IMG/VR virus record: IMGVR_UViG_2724679238_000007
Coordinates: 1-42,109 of that record
Direction: 5' to 3' (one strand)
Length of the DNA stretch: 42,109 nucleotides
Origin: a virus
Taxonomy: Duplodnaviria > Heunggongvirae > Uroviricota > Caudoviricetes
A program made the translations under genes and the position numbers. Positions 1,876-32,528 of the stretch are shown one piece after another. Within the stretch, counting starts at the first letter, position 1; every line of letters begins with the position of its first letter. The notes beneath the pieces were generated by a model, which worked only from the letters and a program-made list of their open reading frames with translations, did no database searches and was not told where the DNA came from.

Positions 1876-2988
1876 TTATTCAGCCGCCACCGGTTTTAAC
1901 AAGCCAGCATCGAGCAGTTTACGCGTCAACCACTGCTGGCCTTTCCCCGTTAATTGAGGCGTCAGCCGTATCTGGTAGCCATCTTCATCATCCAGCACCA
2001 CTTCTTTCACTGTGAAATATCCGGCGTTTATGTACTGCTGAAACGGTACATTTTTACGTCCGCCGGACGCAATCAGGATGCCGTTCTCCCGTAACCAGGC
2101 AAACAGCGCATTTTGCTTAAGTCCAACAACCTTTGCAAAATTCCCAATCAGGATCCCCTTCGCCACTGATACCCGATCGGCAAAATCGACTTTGGGTGCT
2201 GCGGCCACCAGTTGTTGATTTAGCTGGTGGGCCTTCTGTTCCAGTAGCTGCTTTTGTTCAGCCAGCTCGGCAGCCAGACGCAGAGCTTCTGGAAGCGTCT
2301 GGGGGATTGCGATCGGTTGCTGTTCTTTTTGTCGGAAGTAGCTGTCTTCCAGTTTTTCAAAGAATGCCCATGCTTCATTTGTGTCCACGATCTTAGACAT
2401 GCGTGCAGCGCCGCGCTCTGTCCAGAGTGTAAGGCTTCTGGCGTTCTTACCAACAGAGTAACTTCCGGTTACTCTGTTCTTAAATTCTCTTAATTTTAAA
2501 CCAGTTAGAAGAAAGTAATGCTTACCTTCTTCAAAGCGGTCAAGGTTGCGAGACAAATTGTTGCGAATATTGGCTTCATCGACCCCATACCCTCTAGCAA
2601 GAGTTTCGGTTGTCACGACACGTACTCCCTGCCATTCCAGAACGGGAATTTCATCCGGCTGATTCTGAACAACCACCAGTTCCGATTCCTGAACTGAAGG
2701 TGCATAAATTTTTTCTGATTTAACGTTAGTTGCTTTCATTCTGTGTGCCTCCTTGCGTGCTTCGGCTGCGACGGTTGCATAATTCAGATGCCCCTGTTCG
2801 AGCAGGTATTCACGAATATCAGACAGCAGAATGCGGTGAACCGCGTTCTTGTCCTTTCTCCGGTAAAGTTGTTTGGTGATCATGAAGTAGTTGGCAATCA
2901 CGCCCGGTATATCCCTGGTACTGATACAGGCTGTGTGCTGTTCAATTGCCTCGATCATCTCTTCACGGGTGACTAATGACGTTCTCAT
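1876..2988 (-). CDS. ant: phage antirepressor Ant (N-terminal ORF6N/Bro-N-like plus C-terminal KilA-C/ANT domain), copy 1
   Basis: 370 aa; C-terminus (AKVVGLKQNALFAWLRENGIL...YINAGYFTVKEVV...TGKGQQWL) is the KilA-C/ANT signature; start overlaps the icd-like stop by 4 nt; lies downstream of a C1 operator and a c4-like region, as in the P1 immI layout. Confidence 0.8.
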   Translation of the reverse strand: MRTSLVTREEMIEAIEQHTACISTRDIPGVIANYFMITKQLYRRKDKNAVHRILLSDIREYLLEQGHLNYATVAAEARKEAHRMKATNVKSEKIYAPSVQESELVVVQNQPDEIPVLEWQGVRVVTTETLARGYGVDEANIRNNLSRNLDRFEEGKHYFLLTGLKLREFKNRVTGSYSVGKNARSLTLWTERGAARMSKIVDTNEAWAFFEKLEDSYFRQKEQQPIAIPQTLPEALRLAAELAEQKQLLEQKAHQLNQQLVAAAPKVDFADRVSVAKGILIGNFAKVVGLKQNALFAWLRENGILIASGGRKNVPFQQYINAGYFTVKEVVLDDEDGYQIRLTPQLTGKGQQWLTRKLLDAGLLKPVAAE

Positions 2989-3206
2989 AGCCCCTCCTGA
3001 GCAGAAGCGTTAACAGTGAGGCACCAGTAACTGAGAGAATTGCGCAAATCGGTAGAAAAGCGAGCAGAGAAAATACAGGGAGCATCCGGAAGCTGAGAAC
3101 GTGCCTCATCTTCTGTTGGTGCGATAACGAAGTGATAGTGACGTTTTTGACAAGAATAGAAACGCCAGATGAATTCTTGGCGTGCGCAAGGATTGGCATT
3201 AACCAT
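2985..3206 (-). CDS. icd: Icd-like small protein (host cell-division inhibitor family by position), copy 1
   Basis: 73 codons starting at the internal ATG (MVNANPCARQEF...); same length and position as P1 icd; translationally coupled to ant; RBS overlaps a c4 target octamer. The 139-aa extension in the ORF track is not supported by the paralogue. Confidence 0.6.
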   Translation of the reverse strand: MVNANPCARQEFIWRFYSCQKRHYHFVIAPTEDEARSQLPDAPCIFSARFSTDLRNSLSYWCLTVNASAQEGL

Positions 3207-3242
3207 AGTTACGGCCTCATTCGTAGGTTTAACAACCTGCGA

Positions 3243-3330
3243 CCCGCTGCTAAACGGGTGGCAGGACGTGACGGGGTTAGCAGACTGGCACGAATGAAAC
3301 CAGCAGGCCGAAGCCTCCCCACCACGCCCC
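3243..3330 (-). ncRNA. c4: c4-type antisense RNA, copy 1 (boundaries approximate)
   Basis: Non-coding stretch between the operator/promoter and icd. It contains CACGAATG (3289-3296) presented between a CTGG/CCAG stem, complementary to CATTCGTA present both upstream (3402-3409) and at the icd RBS (3218-3225). It also contains a UUCG hairpin and a 7-bp CTGCTAA/TTAGCAG stem. Confidence 0.45.
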
Positions 3331-3507
3331 ACCATAATTTGGGCGTAACGCGGTTTTACGGACATAAAAATACCGCAATATCGGAAATCTGCGGTTGTCC
3401 GCATTCGTATTCAGGCTGCTAAACCCGGTCGCAGAATTTGCTACGACGGCGGAACTATAAGCCTGAACAACAGGAAGATCAATAGTCTGGCGTTCGATGG
3501 TAGTTTA

Positions 3508-3540
3508 TTTGCTCTAATAAATCAAATTTATTAGAGCAAT
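3508..3540. promoter_or_regulatory. pair of abutting, inverted C1-repressor operators controlling the c4-icd-ant (copy 1) promoter
   Basis: 3524-3540 is a perfect reverse match to ATTGCTCTAATAAATTT; 3508-3524 is a 14/17 forward match. Confidence 0.75.
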
Positions 3541-3586: not shown

Positions 3587-4585
3587 TCAATCATTACCGC
3601 GCGACGGTTTCTGCGTGATAAACGTATCAAGCATCTTTTCCGCAATTGCCGACCAGGTGTGACACTGGACCTTTTCAGCATTTTTCACGCGATCAATGCG
3701 AGCAATAACCTCATCCCAATCAATCCGCGACTTGATAACCATATGGTTCACCAAAGCCAGGCGATCCGGCGGAAGACAATCGGGCGGCGTTAATATCAAC
3801 GCCCCACACATTGCCGCCTCAAGAACAGTTAATCCAAGGCTTTCGGGATGCGTAACGATAAAAACGTCACTCTTACGCAATTCAGCTGCAAATTCGGTTG
3901 CTGGTACCGGCGTCCGTCTGTATGGGGTTACCGATATATTCCCTGGATCAATGGTAATCAATCCGTCATCGGTCAACGTTCTGGCCTCATACGGAACGGT
4001 CAGACGCTGAAGGTTCATAAGGATACTTAAGGAGTGATCAAAACCACTAACATCAAATGCAGCGTGGTCTACAAAAATACGCAGAACATCGTCTGTTTTG
4101 GTTTCCAGATGGAACAGCTCCTGATTCGCTGCCCATCCAACATGTTTGTTAAAACGATTATGGCGCTCTAACCTGCCGGGATTATCCAGGTACCGCCAAG
4201 TATCATCGCGGACAGTAAAAGTAATATCGACTGGTGCCGAATCCAGCATAGAACCGTCGTATACCTGGGCTACCCATCCAGTGAATCGAAGACGCAGTTG
4301 CACGCCTATTTCCCTGGGCACCGTAGTAAAATACCGCAATCCTGGCGCTAAAATGGCTTTCGCAGAACACGAGGTCGCAGCGGTCAACACAGCTTCAACA
4401 TAATCCTCCGGGCTTTCGACGCCGGGGGAATATGGACGATGGTATTGCAATGTTACCCCAGCCTCACTAAAGGCGCAGGCCAGGTTATAAGCCCACATTT
4501 CCGTATATGTTTTCACATCACTGATGGCTTCAAATTTTCGCCCAATGATCAGGATGTTCATCGGCTTTTCCTCATTCCATTGCAT
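3587..4585 (-). CDS. Dbn-like protein with a GT-B glycosyltransferase-like C-terminal motif
   Basis: 332 aa; start overlaps the ban stop (TAATG); motif HPESLGLTVLEAAMCGALIL resembles the GT4 donor-binding E-x7-E region; position matches P1 dbn. An alternative start at 4561 has a better SD. Confidence 0.55.
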   Translation of the reverse strand: MQWNEEKPMNILIIGRKFEAISDVKTYTEMWAYNLACAFSEAGVTLQYHRPYSPGVESPEDYVEAVLTAATSCSAKAILAPGLRYFTTVPREIGVQLRLRFTGWVAQVYDGSMLDSAPVDITFTVRDDTWRYLDNPGRLERHNRFNKHVGWAANQELFHLETKTDDVLRIFVDHAAFDVSGFDHSLSILMNLQRLTVPYEARTLTDDGLITIDPGNISVTPYRRTPVPATEFAAELRKSDVFIVTHPESLGLTVLEAAMCGALILTPPDCLPPDRLALVNHMVIKSRIDWDEVIARIDRVKNAEKVQCHTWSAIAEKMLDTFITQKPSRGND

Positions 4586-5955
4586 TAATAATCCTCTTGC
4601 CAGTCAGCACCAGCATAGTTATCAAATCGTGAATACTGGCCGTTAAAAGCCAATCTCACCGTGCCAATCGGGCCATTTCGTTGCTTACCAATAATCACCT
4701 CGGCAATGCCCTTCATTTCGCTATCCGGGTGATAAACCTCGTCGCGATACAGAAACATGATCAGGTCTGCGTCCTGTTCAATTGCTCCAGATTCACGCAA
4801 ATCTGAATTTACCGGTCGTTTGTCCGCACGCTGTTCAAGCGAGCGATTAAGTTGTGACAATGCCACCACCGGCACCTGTAATTCCTTCGCCAACGCCTTA
4901 AGTGAGCGAGAAATCTCGGCAATTTCCAGCGTTCGGTTGTCTTGCAGCTCGGGGACGCGCATAAGTTGCAGGTAGTCGATCATGATCATGCTCAATCCGC
5001 CATTTTCTTTATAAACACGACGAGCACGGGAACGAAGCTCTGTAGGTGTCAGGGCGCTTGAGTCATCAATAAAAATATTCTGCTTGTCCAACAGAATCCC
5101 CATTGCACCAGAAACACGCGCCCAATCCTCGTCGTTAAGTTGCCCCGTTCTAATACGAGTCTGATCAACACGTGCAAGAGAGGCCAGTGAGCGCATCATC
5201 AGCTGGTGGCTTGGCATCTCAAGGCTAAAAACCAATACAGGCTTATCGCTACGGACTGCGGCATTTTCGACAAGATTCATCGCAAACGTAGTCTTTCCCA
5301 TAGATGGGCGGGCGGCGACAATAATGAGATCGGATGGCTGAAGCCCTGCCGTCTTCTTATTGAGATCGGTAAATCCGGTATCAAGCCCCGTTACACCATC
5401 ATGCGGTCGCTGAAACAACTCTTCTATGCGAGATACCGTTGCATCGAGAATGCTGGCGATATCTTTTGGACCACTACCGCTCTTTTGTCGTTTTTCAGCT
5501 ATTTCAAAAACGCGGCGCTCGGCCATATCCAGCAATTCATTGCTGCTCCGGCCATCCTGCGCATATCCAGCTTCGGCTATTTCATTTGCGACGGAAATCA
5601 TTTCACGAACAACCGCACGTTCACGAACGATATCCGCATAAGCACAAATATTTGCCGCGCTGGGCGTGTTCTTTGACATCTCCGCAAGGTACGCAAAACC
5701 ACCGGCGCGTTCTAATTTACCGTTCTGTTCAAGTGCTTCAGCAAGTGTTATCAAATCAATCGGTTTGCCATGACTTAATAACCTCTCCATCTCACTGAAA
5801 ATTTCACGATGAGCACTGGTATAAAAATCATCAGCAACTATACGATCTGCAACTTCATCCCAGCGGCAGTTATCAAGCATTAAGCCACCAAGCACAGCTT
5901 GTTCTGCACTAAGGGAATTTGGCATGGATTCAAGAGGGGATGCAGACATTAACAC
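4585..5955 (-). CDS. ban: replicative DNA helicase, DnaB family (phage Ban-type)
   Basis: 456 aa with Walker A (ARPSMGKTTF) and other DnaB motifs; close to but clearly diverged from E. coli DnaB as recalled; sits in phage context. Confidence 0.9.
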   Translation of the reverse strand: MLMSASPLESMPNSLSAEQAVLGGLMLDNCRWDEVADRIVADDFYTSAHREIFSEMERLLSHGKPIDLITLAEALEQNGKLERAGGFAYLAEMSKNTPSAANICAYADIVRERAVVREMISVANEIAEAGYAQDGRSSNELLDMAERRVFEIAEKRQKSGSGPKDIASILDATVSRIEELFQRPHDGVTGLDTGFTDLNKKTAGLQPSDLIIVAARPSMGKTTFAMNLVENAAVRSDKPVLVFSLEMPSHQLMMRSLASLARVDQTRIRTGQLNDEDWARVSGAMGILLDKQNIFIDDSSALTPTELRSRARRVYKENGGLSMIMIDYLQLMRVPELQDNRTLEIAEISRSLKALAKELQVPVVALSQLNRSLEQRADKRPVNSDLRESGAIEQDADLIMFLYRDEVYHPDSEMKGIAEVIIGKQRNGPIGTVRLAFNGQYSRFDNYAGADWQEDY

Positions 5956-6230: not shown

Positions 6231-6306
6231 TGGTGACCCCTACCGGACTTGAACCGGTGACCGTGCGATTATGAGTCGCCAGCTCTAACCACTGAGCTAA
6301 AGGGCC
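6231..6306 (-). tRNA. tRNA-Ile2 (anticodon CAU, ileX-like; Met not excluded from sequence alone)
   Basis: 76 nt cloverleaf read by hand: acceptor GGCCCTT/AGGGGTC, D-arm TAGCTCAGTGGTTAGAGC, anticodon loop CTCATAA, T-loop GGTTCAAGTCC, encoded CCA; very similar to E. coli ileX as recalled. Confidence 0.75.
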
Positions 6307-7721: not shown

Positions 7722-7797
7722 TGGCGATGGTGGGTGGATTCGAACCACCGACCAGTTAGTTAACAGCCAACTGCTCTAACCGCTGAGCTACACCATC
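7722..7797 (-). tRNA. tRNA-Asn (anticodon GUU)
   Basis: 76 nt: perfect acceptor GATGGTG/CACCATC, D-arm TAGCTCAGCGGTTAGAGC, anticodon arm GTTGG-CTGTTAA-CTAAC, T-arm GGTGG-TTCGAAT-CCACC, discriminator G plus CCA. Confidence 0.8.
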
Positions 7798-25997: not shown

Positions 25998-26184
25998 CAG
26001 TGCAGTAAAAAATTCCTTGCTCCTTGACAGAGGAGAGGATTAATCTAAGTACGCTAAGCATAGGTATGGCCCCGGTTAATGTTAAGCGTTGTGCGGGACG
26101 CATAATGTTTACTGGGGCTTTCTTCTATCTGCTTTTCGGGTAATACCTGAAGCTGATAGCCTCAAGCACACCGCAGCGGGTGTA

Positions 26185-30240: not shown

Positions 30241-30328
30241 CCCGCTGCTAAACAGGTGGCAGGACGTGACGGGGTTAGCAGACTGGCGATTGTGAAACCA
30301 GCAGGCCGAAGCCTCCCCATCACGCCCC
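30241..30328 (-). ncRNA. c4: c4-type antisense RNA, copy 2, with an altered recognition octamer (boundaries approximate)
   Basis: Same architecture as copy 1, but the loop octamer is CGATTGTG (30287-30294), complementary to CACAATCA at 30216-30223 (icd RBS) and 30400-30407. Confidence 0.45.
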
Positions 30329-30518
30329 ACCATAATTTGGGCGTAACGCGGTTTTACGGACACAAAAATACCGCAATATCGGATATCTGCGGCTGTCCGC
30401 ACAATCATTCAGGCTGCTAAACCCGGTCGCAGAATTTGCTACGACGGCGAAACTATAAGCCTGAACGATTAAAAGGTCAATATGATGCGAAAAGATAGCA
30501 TTCGCGACTTAAAAATAC

Positions 30519-30535
30519 AAATTTATTAGAGCAGA
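30519..30535. promoter_or_regulatory. C1-repressor operator upstream of c4-icd-ant copy 2
   Basis: AAATTTATTAGAGCAGA is a 15/17 reverse match to the C1 consensus. Confidence 0.65.
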
Positions 30536-30816
30536 TGAGTGTCGTGCAATAGATGTATTATTTGTGATGAAAAATAATGCAGAGGGATATTGTTACTTTA
30601 AGATGGATATCAATAGTCGATACATAAATTAAGTTAGCAATAAACTATTAACTTAAGAAATAATGCAGATGGTGAACTTATCTCTGACTTTTCAGCTATA
30701 CACAATAAGTTAGGGATAGCTTATAAAAAGTTGATTAATTGATATAAGTCAATGGGAGTATTCTTGTTTACTTTCCGTTCTCGTGGTAACTTCTCGCCGG
30801 TTTTTGTTTTTCTGGG

Positions 30817-31338
30817 ATGATTCTTATGTCTAAAAAGTATACTTTATGCGCTCTTGTTGTATCTGCAATTCTTCTTTCTGGGTGTCAATCTAGCGGTGCT
30901 GATTATGCTGCCGATGTTTATGATACCGCTCAATTGAATTCGAAGCAGGAAACAAAGACAGTCAATATTATCTCTGTGCTTCCAGCTAAAGTGAAAGTTG
31001 ATAATAAAGCTAATAAAGAAGCGGCACAGACATTTGGTGCGGTACTGGGAGCTGTTGCTGGGGGCGTTGCCGGTTATAATGTTAAAGGCACATCGACACT
31101 GGGTGCTGTAGCTGGCGGTACTGGTGGTGCGGCTCTTGGTGCAGCGGCTGGTTCTTTGGTTAGTGATAAAACAATTGTTGAAGGTGTTTCACTGACTTAT
31201 AAAGAAGGAACTAAGGTGTTCACTTCAACTCAAGTTGGTAAAGCATGCCAGTTTACAACGGGGCTTGCTGTGCTTATTTCAACTAAAGATAATGAAACTC
31301 GAATTCAGCCAAATGCTACTTGTCCAGAAAAGAAATAA
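30817..31338 (+). CDS. lipoprotein with a glycine-zipper (GxxxG-rich) segment
   Basis: 173 aa; lipobox LLSGC; segment GAVLGAVAGGVAGY...GAVAGGTGGAALGAAAGS; AT-rich codon usage. Confidence 0.6.
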   Translation: MILMSKKYTLCALVVSAILLSGCQSSGADYAADVYDTAQLNSKQETKTVNIISVLPAKVKVDNKANKEAAQTFGAVLGAVAGGVAGYNVKGTSTLGAVAGGTGGAALGAAAGSLVSDKTIVEGVSLTYKEGTKVFTSTQVGKACQFTTGLAVLISTKDNETRIQPNATCPEKK

Positions 31339-31341
31339 TTT

Positions 31342-31881
31342 ATGAATAAAATTATTTTATTTCTAATCTTTTCTACGTTTAGTGTAGGCACTGCCTTGGC
31401 TAACTCGTTGCAAAGTCAAATTGCTGCTATTGCTCAAGCGGAAAATGAAGGGCGAGCTAAAGAGCAGCAAGCTGAGGATGCCAGAAAAGAACTTATTCGC
31501 CAACAAGCACAAGCTGAACGTATTAGAAGAGAAAAAGCAGCATCTGCCGCTGCTGCACGCGAAAAACAGCGTGTTGCTGCAGAAAATGAACGTAGAGCGA
31601 AACGAGAAGCCGAGCTAGCAAATGACAAGAAGCGAGATCAAGCTTATGAGGATGAGCTTCGCAAGCTGCAACTCGAAAGCATGAAACTCGAACTGCAAGC
31701 AAAAGCGGCTCGTGTCCAGCGAGAAAACGATTTTATAGAGCAGGAGTTGAAGGAGAGAGCAGCTAAGACAGATGTAATTCAGTCTGAGGCTGATGCAAAT
31801 AGAAATATTTCTACAGGAAGTAAAGATTTACTGCAAAGCGAAGGAAAAGCTAGAGAGAAGAAAGCTAGCAGTTGGTGGTAG
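31342..31881 (+). CDS. secreted, highly charged coiled-coil protein
   Basis: 179 aa; signal peptide ending ALA-NS; long Glu/Arg/Lys/Ala/Gln-rich helical region; starts 3 nt after the lipoprotein gene. Confidence 0.55.
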   Translation: MNKIILFLIFSTFSVGTALANSLQSQIAAIAQAENEGRAKEQQAEDARKELIRQQAQAERIRREKAASAAAAREKQRVAAENERRAKREAELANDKKRDQAYEDELRKLQLESMKLELQAKAARVQRENDFIEQELKERAAKTDVIQSEADANRNISTGSKDLLQSEGKAREKKASSWW

Positions 31882-31920
31882 TAATCACTACGATTGCGAG
31901 CATACTGTCACAAATGACAA

Positions 31921-32528
<608 letters not shown>

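Follow-up and report, generated by a model that had tools for sequence, protein, structure and literature searches.

The stretch of DNA analysed here (the window) comprises 42,109 nucleotides (nt), corresponding to positions 1 to 42,109 of IMG/VR record IMGVR_UViG_2724679238_000007, and represents a P1/P7-type phage-plasmid of the genus Punavirus. In the interval between its immI unit and the late promoter LPsit lies a short AT-rich segment with two genes for exported envelope proteins, a lipoprotein and a protein with a DUF5384 domain, which correspond to upf50.5 and upf50.0 of P7 (Table 1). From sequence comparison, we conclude that the variable sim slot holds here an accessory ("moron") cassette acquired by horizontal exchange, which carries a mobile paralogue of the Escherichia coli operon yfgH-yfgI. 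The edges of the cassette were taken from alignments of the window with P1, Ro157c2YLVW, and the plasmid pLR-25_1. The aligned P1-like elements (4/4) are identical up to position 30533, where the common sequence ends in TATTAGAGCA, and are unrelated past that point. Homology among them restarts at ~31904-31910, just before LPsit, from ACAAATGAC on. Since the backbone homology restarts at LPsit, the cassette lies outside the late operon. Its composition is foreign: the 280 bp from 30537 to 30816 have a guanine-plus-cytosine (GC) content of 0.318, compared to a window mean of 0.471 (standard deviation 0.042), which places them among the lowest 0.4% of 280-bp windows and makes them the sole stretch of the window with a GC content of 0.33 or less. 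The GC content at third codon positions (GC3) amounts to 0.24 in the lipoprotein gene and 0.31 in the DUF5384 gene, whereas it is 0.46-0.53 in pmgC, tub, pmgB, ant, and kilA. A preliminary description of the locus had reported an island of about 280 bp of AT-rich non-coding DNA followed by genes with AT-rich codon usage, and the GC, GC3, and open reading frame (ORF) scans confirm this.

In P1 (NC_005856), simA-simB-simC fill the interval between Oc4 and LPsit/pmgC that is held here by the cassette; the position of the sim genes had thus been given correctly in the preliminary description. A third cargo of the slot, the Ro157c2-type pair, encodes unrelated proteins. The slot holds interchangeable cassettes, and an earlier study counted the sim region among eight variable regions with low GC content in P1-like phage-plasmids (PMC9603915). 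The cassette and simABC have in common the interval, the orientation divergent from c4, and the low GC content. SimC begins with a signal peptide, as do gp35 and gp34 of Ro157c2. In P1 the region is dispensable for lytic growth, sim not being required for plaque formation (PMC10695390). In contrast, the two cargos share no sequence similarity, and simABC comprises three genes instead of two. The cassette of the window is 99.3% identical to that of P7, 99.6% to those of RCS47 and phi456, 99.5% to that of SJ46, and 99.3% to that of JL22, and the P7 record labels upf50.5 "outer membrane lipoprotein of unknown function". Within PLSDB, the P7-type pair occurs in 167 plasmids (at least 99% protein identity) and an 84% allele in a further 20, whereas simC was found in ~140 plasmids, which is fewer than the ~187 with the yfgHI-like cassette. 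Some minor observations concern the other occupants of the slot. The gp35/gp34 cassette of Ro157c2YLVW encodes signal-peptide proteins of 215 and 158 amino acids (aa), and the Ro157c2 DNA matches P1 for ~80 bp past the operator, into the start of simA. Full-length relatives of gp35 are present in 84 PLSDB records, and many more records match only the first ~48 residues. In pLR-25_1, which represents the plasmids with the 84% allele, a 419-aa DUF559/REase_MTES_1575-like gene is located between the cassette and the next annotated downstream gene.

For the lipoprotein gene two start codons come into question, 30817 (173 aa; used in the P7 GenBank record) and the ATG at 30826 (170 aa). The latter is likelier because a GGGA motif lies 8 nt upstream and the homologues are 170-172 aa long. 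A rule-based call yielded a signal peptide with a lipobox (LLSG-C), which places the cleavage between MSKKYTLCALVVSAILLSG and CQS. The lipobox cysteine, Cys20, is invariant in 43 homologues, and since glutamine and not aspartate occupies position +2, sorting to the outer membrane is predicted. The mature protein is predicted to consist of a beta segment, a glycine-zipper helical hairpin (~61-111), and a C-terminal beta domain with two invariant cysteines at positions 141 and 166. Within the Gly/Ala-rich zipper (~66-112), G71, G75, G79, G101, and G105 are invariant in the 43 homologues. The zipper assignment is based on this alignment, since the match to Pfam PF05433 (18.2 bits) stays below the cut-off of 24.2. 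The plus-strand ORF, the lipobox, and the invariant zipper glycines bear out the earlier assignment as a lipoprotein with a glycine-zipper segment. When the family profile was compared to SlyB (7OJF), a full-length match was obtained (positions 9-162 of 171; E=8.4e-10). The AlphaFold2 (AF2) model of the monomer has a low mean confidence (predicted local distance difference test, pLDDT, 53.7) and shows helices at 61-85 and 92-111 between the beta segment and the beta domain. A Foldseek search with this low-confidence model gave SlyB (7ojf_A) as top match (E=1.1e-5, probability 1.00, template modelling (TM) scores 0.56/0.65), and this was the sole significant fold match in the PDB. Judging from the profile match and, as far as the model allows, from the fold match, the lipoprotein belongs to the SlyB/YfgH glycine-zipper family.

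The ORF of the DUF5384 protein begins 3 nt past the lipoprotein stop codon. Its product has a cleavable-type signal peptide (...GTALA-NS) and matches Pfam PF17358 over residues 39-179 with 147.8 bits (cut-off 25; E=3e-43). The mature protein of 159 aa contains 41% D/E/K/R and 19% Ala. AF2 predicted a single continuous helix from residue 3 to 178 (pLDDT 87.5), and as a helix the mature protein would measure ~24 nm (159 residues x 0.15 nm), which is about the width of the periplasm. Two parts can be distinguished by their conservation, namely a charged spacer of variable sequence (~35-95) and a C-terminal half (~96-179) that is conserved and has an aromatic SWW end. Residues ~35-95 lack a canonical heptad core, because they contain only 1-3 hydrophobic residues per 28, and they show a mild excess of opposite-charge pairs at i/i+3,4 (z ~2.3), so that this part looks like a charged single-helix spacer. 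Heptad-like hydrophobicity is confined to ~100-135. Thus, the preliminary description as a secreted protein that is almost entirely charged coiled coil holds for the signal peptide and the predicted long charged helix, whereas the coiled coil is reduced to the short heptad-like part. The DUF5384 profile matched no solved structure, and literature searches on DUF5384 and on upf50.0/upf50.5 returned nothing.

In E. coli, the yfgH-yfgI operon is located between yfgG and guaA and was detected in 5420 of the 5426 complete genomes. By homology, the cassette genes are paralogues of this core operon. Both pairs show the same gene order with a short gap, and identity extends over the full length of the products, with 69% to K-12 YfgH (E=6e-73) and 47% to K-12 YfgI (E=9e-46). 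Further common features are the lipobox, the glycine zipper, the paired C-terminal cysteines, the DUF5384 domain, and the aromatic C-terminus. The phage pair differs from the host pair in its location in the sim slot, in its upstream region, which has a conserved palindrome of its own, and in its GC3 (0.24/0.31 compared to 0.43/0.49 in the host). A low GC3 (0.20-0.34) is common to all mobile copies and to a chromosomal pair from Xenorhabdus, in contrast to the E. coli core pair. The phage pair represents a separate mobile lineage, which is about equally far from the E. coli core copies and the Xenorhabdus chromosomal copies.

Published data on the host pair mainly concern YfgH. A genetic interaction of yfgH with lptD has been described, and loss of the gene weakens the outer membrane (PMC3219608). 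According to a preprint (bioRxiv 10.64898/2025.12.22.696046), YfgH stabilises the outer membrane under stress by sodium dodecyl sulfate/ethylenediaminetetraacetic acid and under biogenesis stress, and it interacts with outer-membrane proteins, whereby its deletion is linked to their loss. The same study predicts that YfgH forms SlyB-like rings, and it reports that the mutants are suppressed differently, by clsA mutations in the case of yfgH and via Mla in the case of slyB. The orthologues from S. Typhi, srgIL, are regulated by SdiA (PMC11619404). In the Dub-seq and INSeq papers, yfgH is mentioned only in passing. SlyB itself (7OJF/7OJG), which forms rings around nanodomains of lipid and outer-membrane proteins, resembles the phage lipoprotein in the full-length profile match and in the predicted arrangement, in which the lipid anchor is followed by a beta segment, the Gly-zipper hairpin, and a beta domain, and it is the best fold match of the low-confidence model. 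However, the identity between them is only ~25%, and a dedicated DUF5384 partner gene is present in the phage pair.

The slot alleles have 84% (lipoprotein) and 80% (partner) protein identity in otherwise similar P1-like backbones. Between them, the ratio of nonsynonymous to synonymous divergence (dN/dS) is 0.06 for the lipoprotein and 0.04 for the partner, with a dS of at least 1.45, which is near saturation. Such strong purifying selection indicates that both genes are functional, and the near-saturated dS in similar backbones indicates that the cassette was exchanged and did not diverge in place. This result also bears on the idea that the phage lipoprotein acts by interference or as a decoy, in that it co-assembles with YfgH or SlyB of the host and thereby alters the envelope-stress response or vesiculation in favour of the element, instead of only adding to the stabilising capacity. 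Since identity is high in the glycine-zipper and beta segments, mixed oligomers could form, and a plain duplicate seems redundant given that the host copy is near-universal. However, the argument is a purely deductive one, and the purifying selection, which extends over the entire protein, could as well reflect a conserved native function. We consider such an interference improbable.

The pair was found in P1-like plasmids, in P2-like and lambdoid prophages, on a Vibrio conjugative plasmid, and on the Xenorhabdus chromosome, where it lies between plsY and tsaD. In the contexts examined, the gene order is constant and the gap measures 3-45 nt. Homologues with 73-76% identity are located at prophage ends. 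In P2-like prophages the pair adjoins genes for a DUF4376 tail-fibre-assembly protein, the tail fibre, gpD, gpX, and gpU, and, across E. coli and Salmonella, three different host loci harbour these prophages. The pair apparently travels with the prophage, since pair and adjoining tail-fibre genes are about equally diverged between the species (~77%). A lambdoid IMG/VR contig shows the order J, lom, stf, tfa, followed by the yfgHI-like pair. Another E. coli genome carries this pair and the 5' part of tfa, with 98.5% identity, beside P2-like tail genes. This finding suggests that phages of different types exchange a module linked to the tail fibre. A lone gene annotated for a YfgH-like lipoprotein (75% identity) is present on pNT1W25-7k (NZ_CP075476), a 7.5-kb mobilisable ColE1-type plasmid. 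It adjoins a phosphoethanolamine transferase gene, and it may be that an enzyme modifying lipopolysaccharide (LPS) is paired there with a membrane stabiliser. Matches of 68-69% in TL-2011b and in ~60 IMG/VR contigs were not counted as phage carriage, since they represent the host yfgHI at over-extended prophage borders. At its end, TL-2011b (JQ011317, 38921-44784) has the gene order of host yfgG-yfgH-yfgI, adjoined by a misc_feature which we take to be pdeF/yfgF, and in the ~60 predicted viral contigs the 68-69% yfgH copy lies at or near the contig end. These observations suggest a prophage of ~40 kb that inserts next to yfgI/guaA and for which the predicted borders reach into host DNA.

In front of the two genes, the AT-rich leader contains no ORF of at least 30 aa and no Rfam family. 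A motif near 30786-30815 resembles a sigma-E promoter, but it was unconvincing on inspection by eye, is not kept in the 84% allele, and was therefore discarded. The palindrome in the leader is kept in the P7-type and the 84% (pLR-25_1) alleles despite the diverged spacer around it. It was found once in the window, with 0.06 matches expected, and among 18 loci only in P7 and pLR-25_1. Going by its sequence features, the leader is probably under H-NS or activator control, and it may be silenced by H-NS. As the cassette lies outside the late operon, with its putative promoter region ~200 bp from the nearest C1 operator, the genes are probably expressed in the lysogen; this is plausible from the position together with the upstream palindrome.

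Taken together, these data lead us to favour, with moderate confidence, the interpretation that the cassette serves lysogenic conversion by hardening or remodelling the outer membrane of the host. By analogy to its homologues, the lipoprotein would receive its lipid at Cys20 after export and reach the outer membrane, where it would insert its glycine-zipper hairpin and oligomerise into rings as SlyB does and as has been proposed for YfgH. Such rings would corral patches of lipid, LPS, and outer-membrane proteins and thus stabilise the membrane. The co-translated DUF5384 partner would be released to the periplasm as a charged helix, and its conserved C-terminal half would work together with the lipoprotein or with another envelope component. 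The barrier effect may extend to incoming phages, colicins, or serum. That non-phage plasmids also carry the family speaks for an envelope benefit of a general kind over a phage-specific trick. Several points weigh against this interpretation. Expression in the lysogen is deduced from position and the envelope effect from homology, and a promoter scan of the leader gave no plus-strand sigma-70 candidate upstream of the genes. Ring formation is likewise deduced from homology, the AF2 monomer being of low confidence, and the YfgH characterisation is a preprint in which the rings were not shown biochemically (bioRxiv 10.64898/2025.12.22.696046). For yfgI, nalidixic-acid sensitivity is the sole phenotype (PMC3536626). 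Moreover, the host already has yfgHI, and a second copy with 69% identity could equally interfere with the host protein.

In the preliminary description, the two genes had been viewed as a possible exclusion or envelope-modifying module. The envelope part of this view is supported by the YfgH identity, the SlyB profile match, and the DUF5384 partner, whereas the evidence for the exclusion part is circumstantial. If the cassette were a superinfection-exclusion module that functionally replaces Sim, a reading we regard as possible though unlikely, the rings and the periplasmic helix could mask or immobilise receptors (LPS core, outer-membrane proteins) or block the penetration of the tail tube or Sit, so that incoming P1-like or other phages would adsorb poorly or would not deliver their DNA. 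It would fit that the cassette fills the exact sim interval as a non-homologous replacement and that all three slot cargos (SimC, Ro157c2 gp35/gp34, and the present pair) encode signal-peptide proteins. Furthermore, related pairs directly follow tail-fibre and tail-fibre-assembly genes in lambdoid (J-lom-stf-tfa) and P2-like prophages, and exclusion genes such as cor or llp sit beside receptor-binding (tail-fibre) genes. However, this tail-fibre-adjacent spot is also used by morons that do not act in exclusion, for example lom in the same locus. The family is also a core housekeeping operon in E. coli, chromosomal in Xenorhabdus, and present on non-phage plasmids. The P7-type pair is not known to confer an exclusion phenotype.

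Among exclusion proteins, Sim, Cor, Llp, and TraT show no significant similarity to the pair. For SimC, the best BLASTP values were E=0.044 over 30 residues (lipoprotein) and E=5 (DUF5384 protein). A PHROG match to Cor (E=0.022) is limited to the signal-peptide region. Neither protein matched a PADLOC-DB defence model at E<=0.1, and NCBIfam gave nothing meaningful for the cassette proteins. A weak resemblance to TraT would be in favour of exclusion; however, it fails both the sequence and the fold thresholds, with 23.1 bits for PF05818 over residues 59-145 only (gathering cut-off 31) and Foldseek values of E=0.32 (TM 0.18) for 9fsm_A and E=0.97 for 9fs5_A, obtained with the low-confidence query model. 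TraT from F-like plasmids (9FS5/9FSM) is an outer-membrane lipoprotein of mobile elements that oligomerises via a helical membrane segment (PMC11733297), and its weak Pfam similarity spans the Gly-rich region of the phage lipoprotein. In contrast to the latter, TraT has ~225 aa, an extracellular ring domain, and a decameric cork, and it is encoded without a DUF5384 partner. Neither of the two TraT structure papers, of which PMC11733297 is one, mentions a glycine zipper or discusses phages. Lom, bor, and cor are known as envelope or conversion morons. The pair resembles these lambdoid morons in that they encode small envelope proteins, have a foreign composition, and form optional cargo by tail-fibre genes, and in a lambdoid prophage a related pair directly follows J-lom-stf-tfa. 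There is no homology to them, the match to Cor being confined to the signal peptide.

Envelope hardening and exclusion are compatible and not mutually exclusive. In a combined form, phages of three unrelated types, i.e., P1-like phage-plasmids, lambdoid phages, and P2-like phages, would have repeatedly captured a mobile YfgH-YfgI lineage as an outer-membrane "armour" that excludes superinfecting phages by SlyB-type rings coupled to a ~24-nm helix spanning the periplasm. We regard this as a speculative proposal that is rather doubtful. If true, the pair would constitute a new mechanistic class of superinfection exclusion, would functionally replace Sim in P7-type elements, might also exclude colicins or complement, and would provide the first function for YfgI/DUF5384.

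Two further explanations stem from annotation and gene architecture. In RefSeq records NC_050152 (P7), NC_042128 (RCS47), NC_031129 (SJ46), and NC_019445 (TL-2011b), the lipoprotein is labelled "DNA methyltransferase", a name derived from PHROG 1277, and the phi456 record (OR339795) gives the names "minor tail protein" and "tail tip protein" to the features that underlie the match. These product names are the only indication for such functions; Pfam and NCBIfam searches found no domain of this kind, and the protein has a lipobox, a glycine zipper, and the high identity to YfgH. On these grounds there is hardly any chance that the names are right, and both the methyltransferase and the tail labels are, by homology, propagated labelling errors. 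The second explanation is an accessory function in lysis, in which a spanin-like pair would fuse or disrupt the membranes. A lipoprotein gene beside a gene for a long-helix envelope protein superficially recalls this architecture, and a weak PHROG match to an Rz-like family (E=0.038) exists. However, the match covers only residues 10-67, the end with signal peptide and lipobox, and at its N-terminus the helix protein has a signal peptide of the cleavable AXA type in place of a membrane anchor. In addition, the mature lipoprotein is ~150 aa long and includes a membrane hairpin, the cassette lies outside the late operons, and in both E. coli and Xenorhabdus the homologues are core genes that do not belong to prophages. 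The spanin-like explanation is therefore very improbable and effectively refuted. Homology to structural or lysis proteins, which the preliminary description had named as evidence against an envelope or exclusion module, was looked for and not found.

The P7 GenBank record already lists the genes and points to their similarity with K-12 proteins, and the slot has been described as variable (PMC9603915); the preliminary description had overlooked both the annotation in P7 (upf50.5/upf50.0) and the well-conserved host homologues. New are the YfgH/SlyB and DUF5384 assignments, the exact cassette edges, the evidence for selection, the recurrence of the pair beside lambdoid and P2-like tail-fibre genes, and the correction of misannotations such as "DNA methyltransferase". 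Among the carriers of resistance genes in E. coli and Salmonella, P1-like phage-plasmids are common. Provided that it strengthens the outer membrane, the cassette would spread with these elements as a determinant of fitness or of tolerance (to detergents, bile, chelators, and possibly polymyxin-related stress). Should it exclude phages, this would be relevant to phage therapy as well as to P1 transduction, and the mechanism of exclusion would be a new one. In either case, the cassette provides a naturally occurring gain-of-function tool for the study of YfgH-YfgI, a pair about which little is understood.

Table 1. Features of the cassette and its borders in the window.
Feature	Position	Strand	Basis or remark
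Exchangeable low-GC cassette ("sim slot"), ~1.37 kb	30534..31905 (right edge approximate, 31904-31909)	+	Alignments
AT-rich non-coding leader/promoter region	30537..30825	.	GC 0.32
Palindrome ATTGATATAAGTCAAT	30738..30753	.	~75 bp upstream of start codon; candidate regulator-binding site
YfgH-like outer-membrane lipoprotein, P7 Upf50.5, 170 aa	30826..31338 (GenBank start 30817)	+	Homology, profile
YfgI-like DUF5384 periplasmic protein, P7 Upf50.0, 179 aa	31342..31881	+	Pfam PF17358, homology
C1 repressor operator Op(c4) of the divergent c4-icd-ant (immI) unit	30519..30535	-	Consensus match, 2 mismatches; P7 annotation Op(c4)
Late promoter LPsit of the pmgC/tubA-tub-pmgB-sit operon	31911..31930	+	P7 annotation mapped onto window

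To the left of the cassette, the minus strand carries the C4 RNA at 30252-30337, its a1/b1 targets, icd, and ant. An Rfam scan detected two C4 RNA loci in the window, both on the minus strand, at 3254-3339 and 30252-30337. The operator of the latter copy abuts the cassette start at 30534, and the preliminary description was thus right in placing the genes divergent from a second immI copy. The other immI-like unit (1876-3540, minus strand) is located downstream of ban (4585-5955) and of a 332-aa ORF. Besides the C4 antisense RNA at 3254-3339, it comprises a1/b1 targets at 3408-3460, a perfect C1 operator at 3524-3540, an icd-like ORF, and a 370-aa Ant-like ORF at 1876-2988. To the right of the cassette, LPsit is followed by pmgC/tubA according to the P7 annotation. 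Between LPsit and the pmgC start codon lies a perfect 11-bp inverted repeat (31921-31955; CTCGTAGAATC...GATTCTACGAG), which is also conserved in P1 and Ro157c2. Elsewhere in the window, a match to the sok antitoxin RNA in Rfam (26003-26171, minus strand; 62.5 bits compared to a gathering score of 59) suggests a hok/sok-type addiction locus, and the Rfam scan identified two tRNA genes on the minus strand, at 6234-6306 and 7725-7797.

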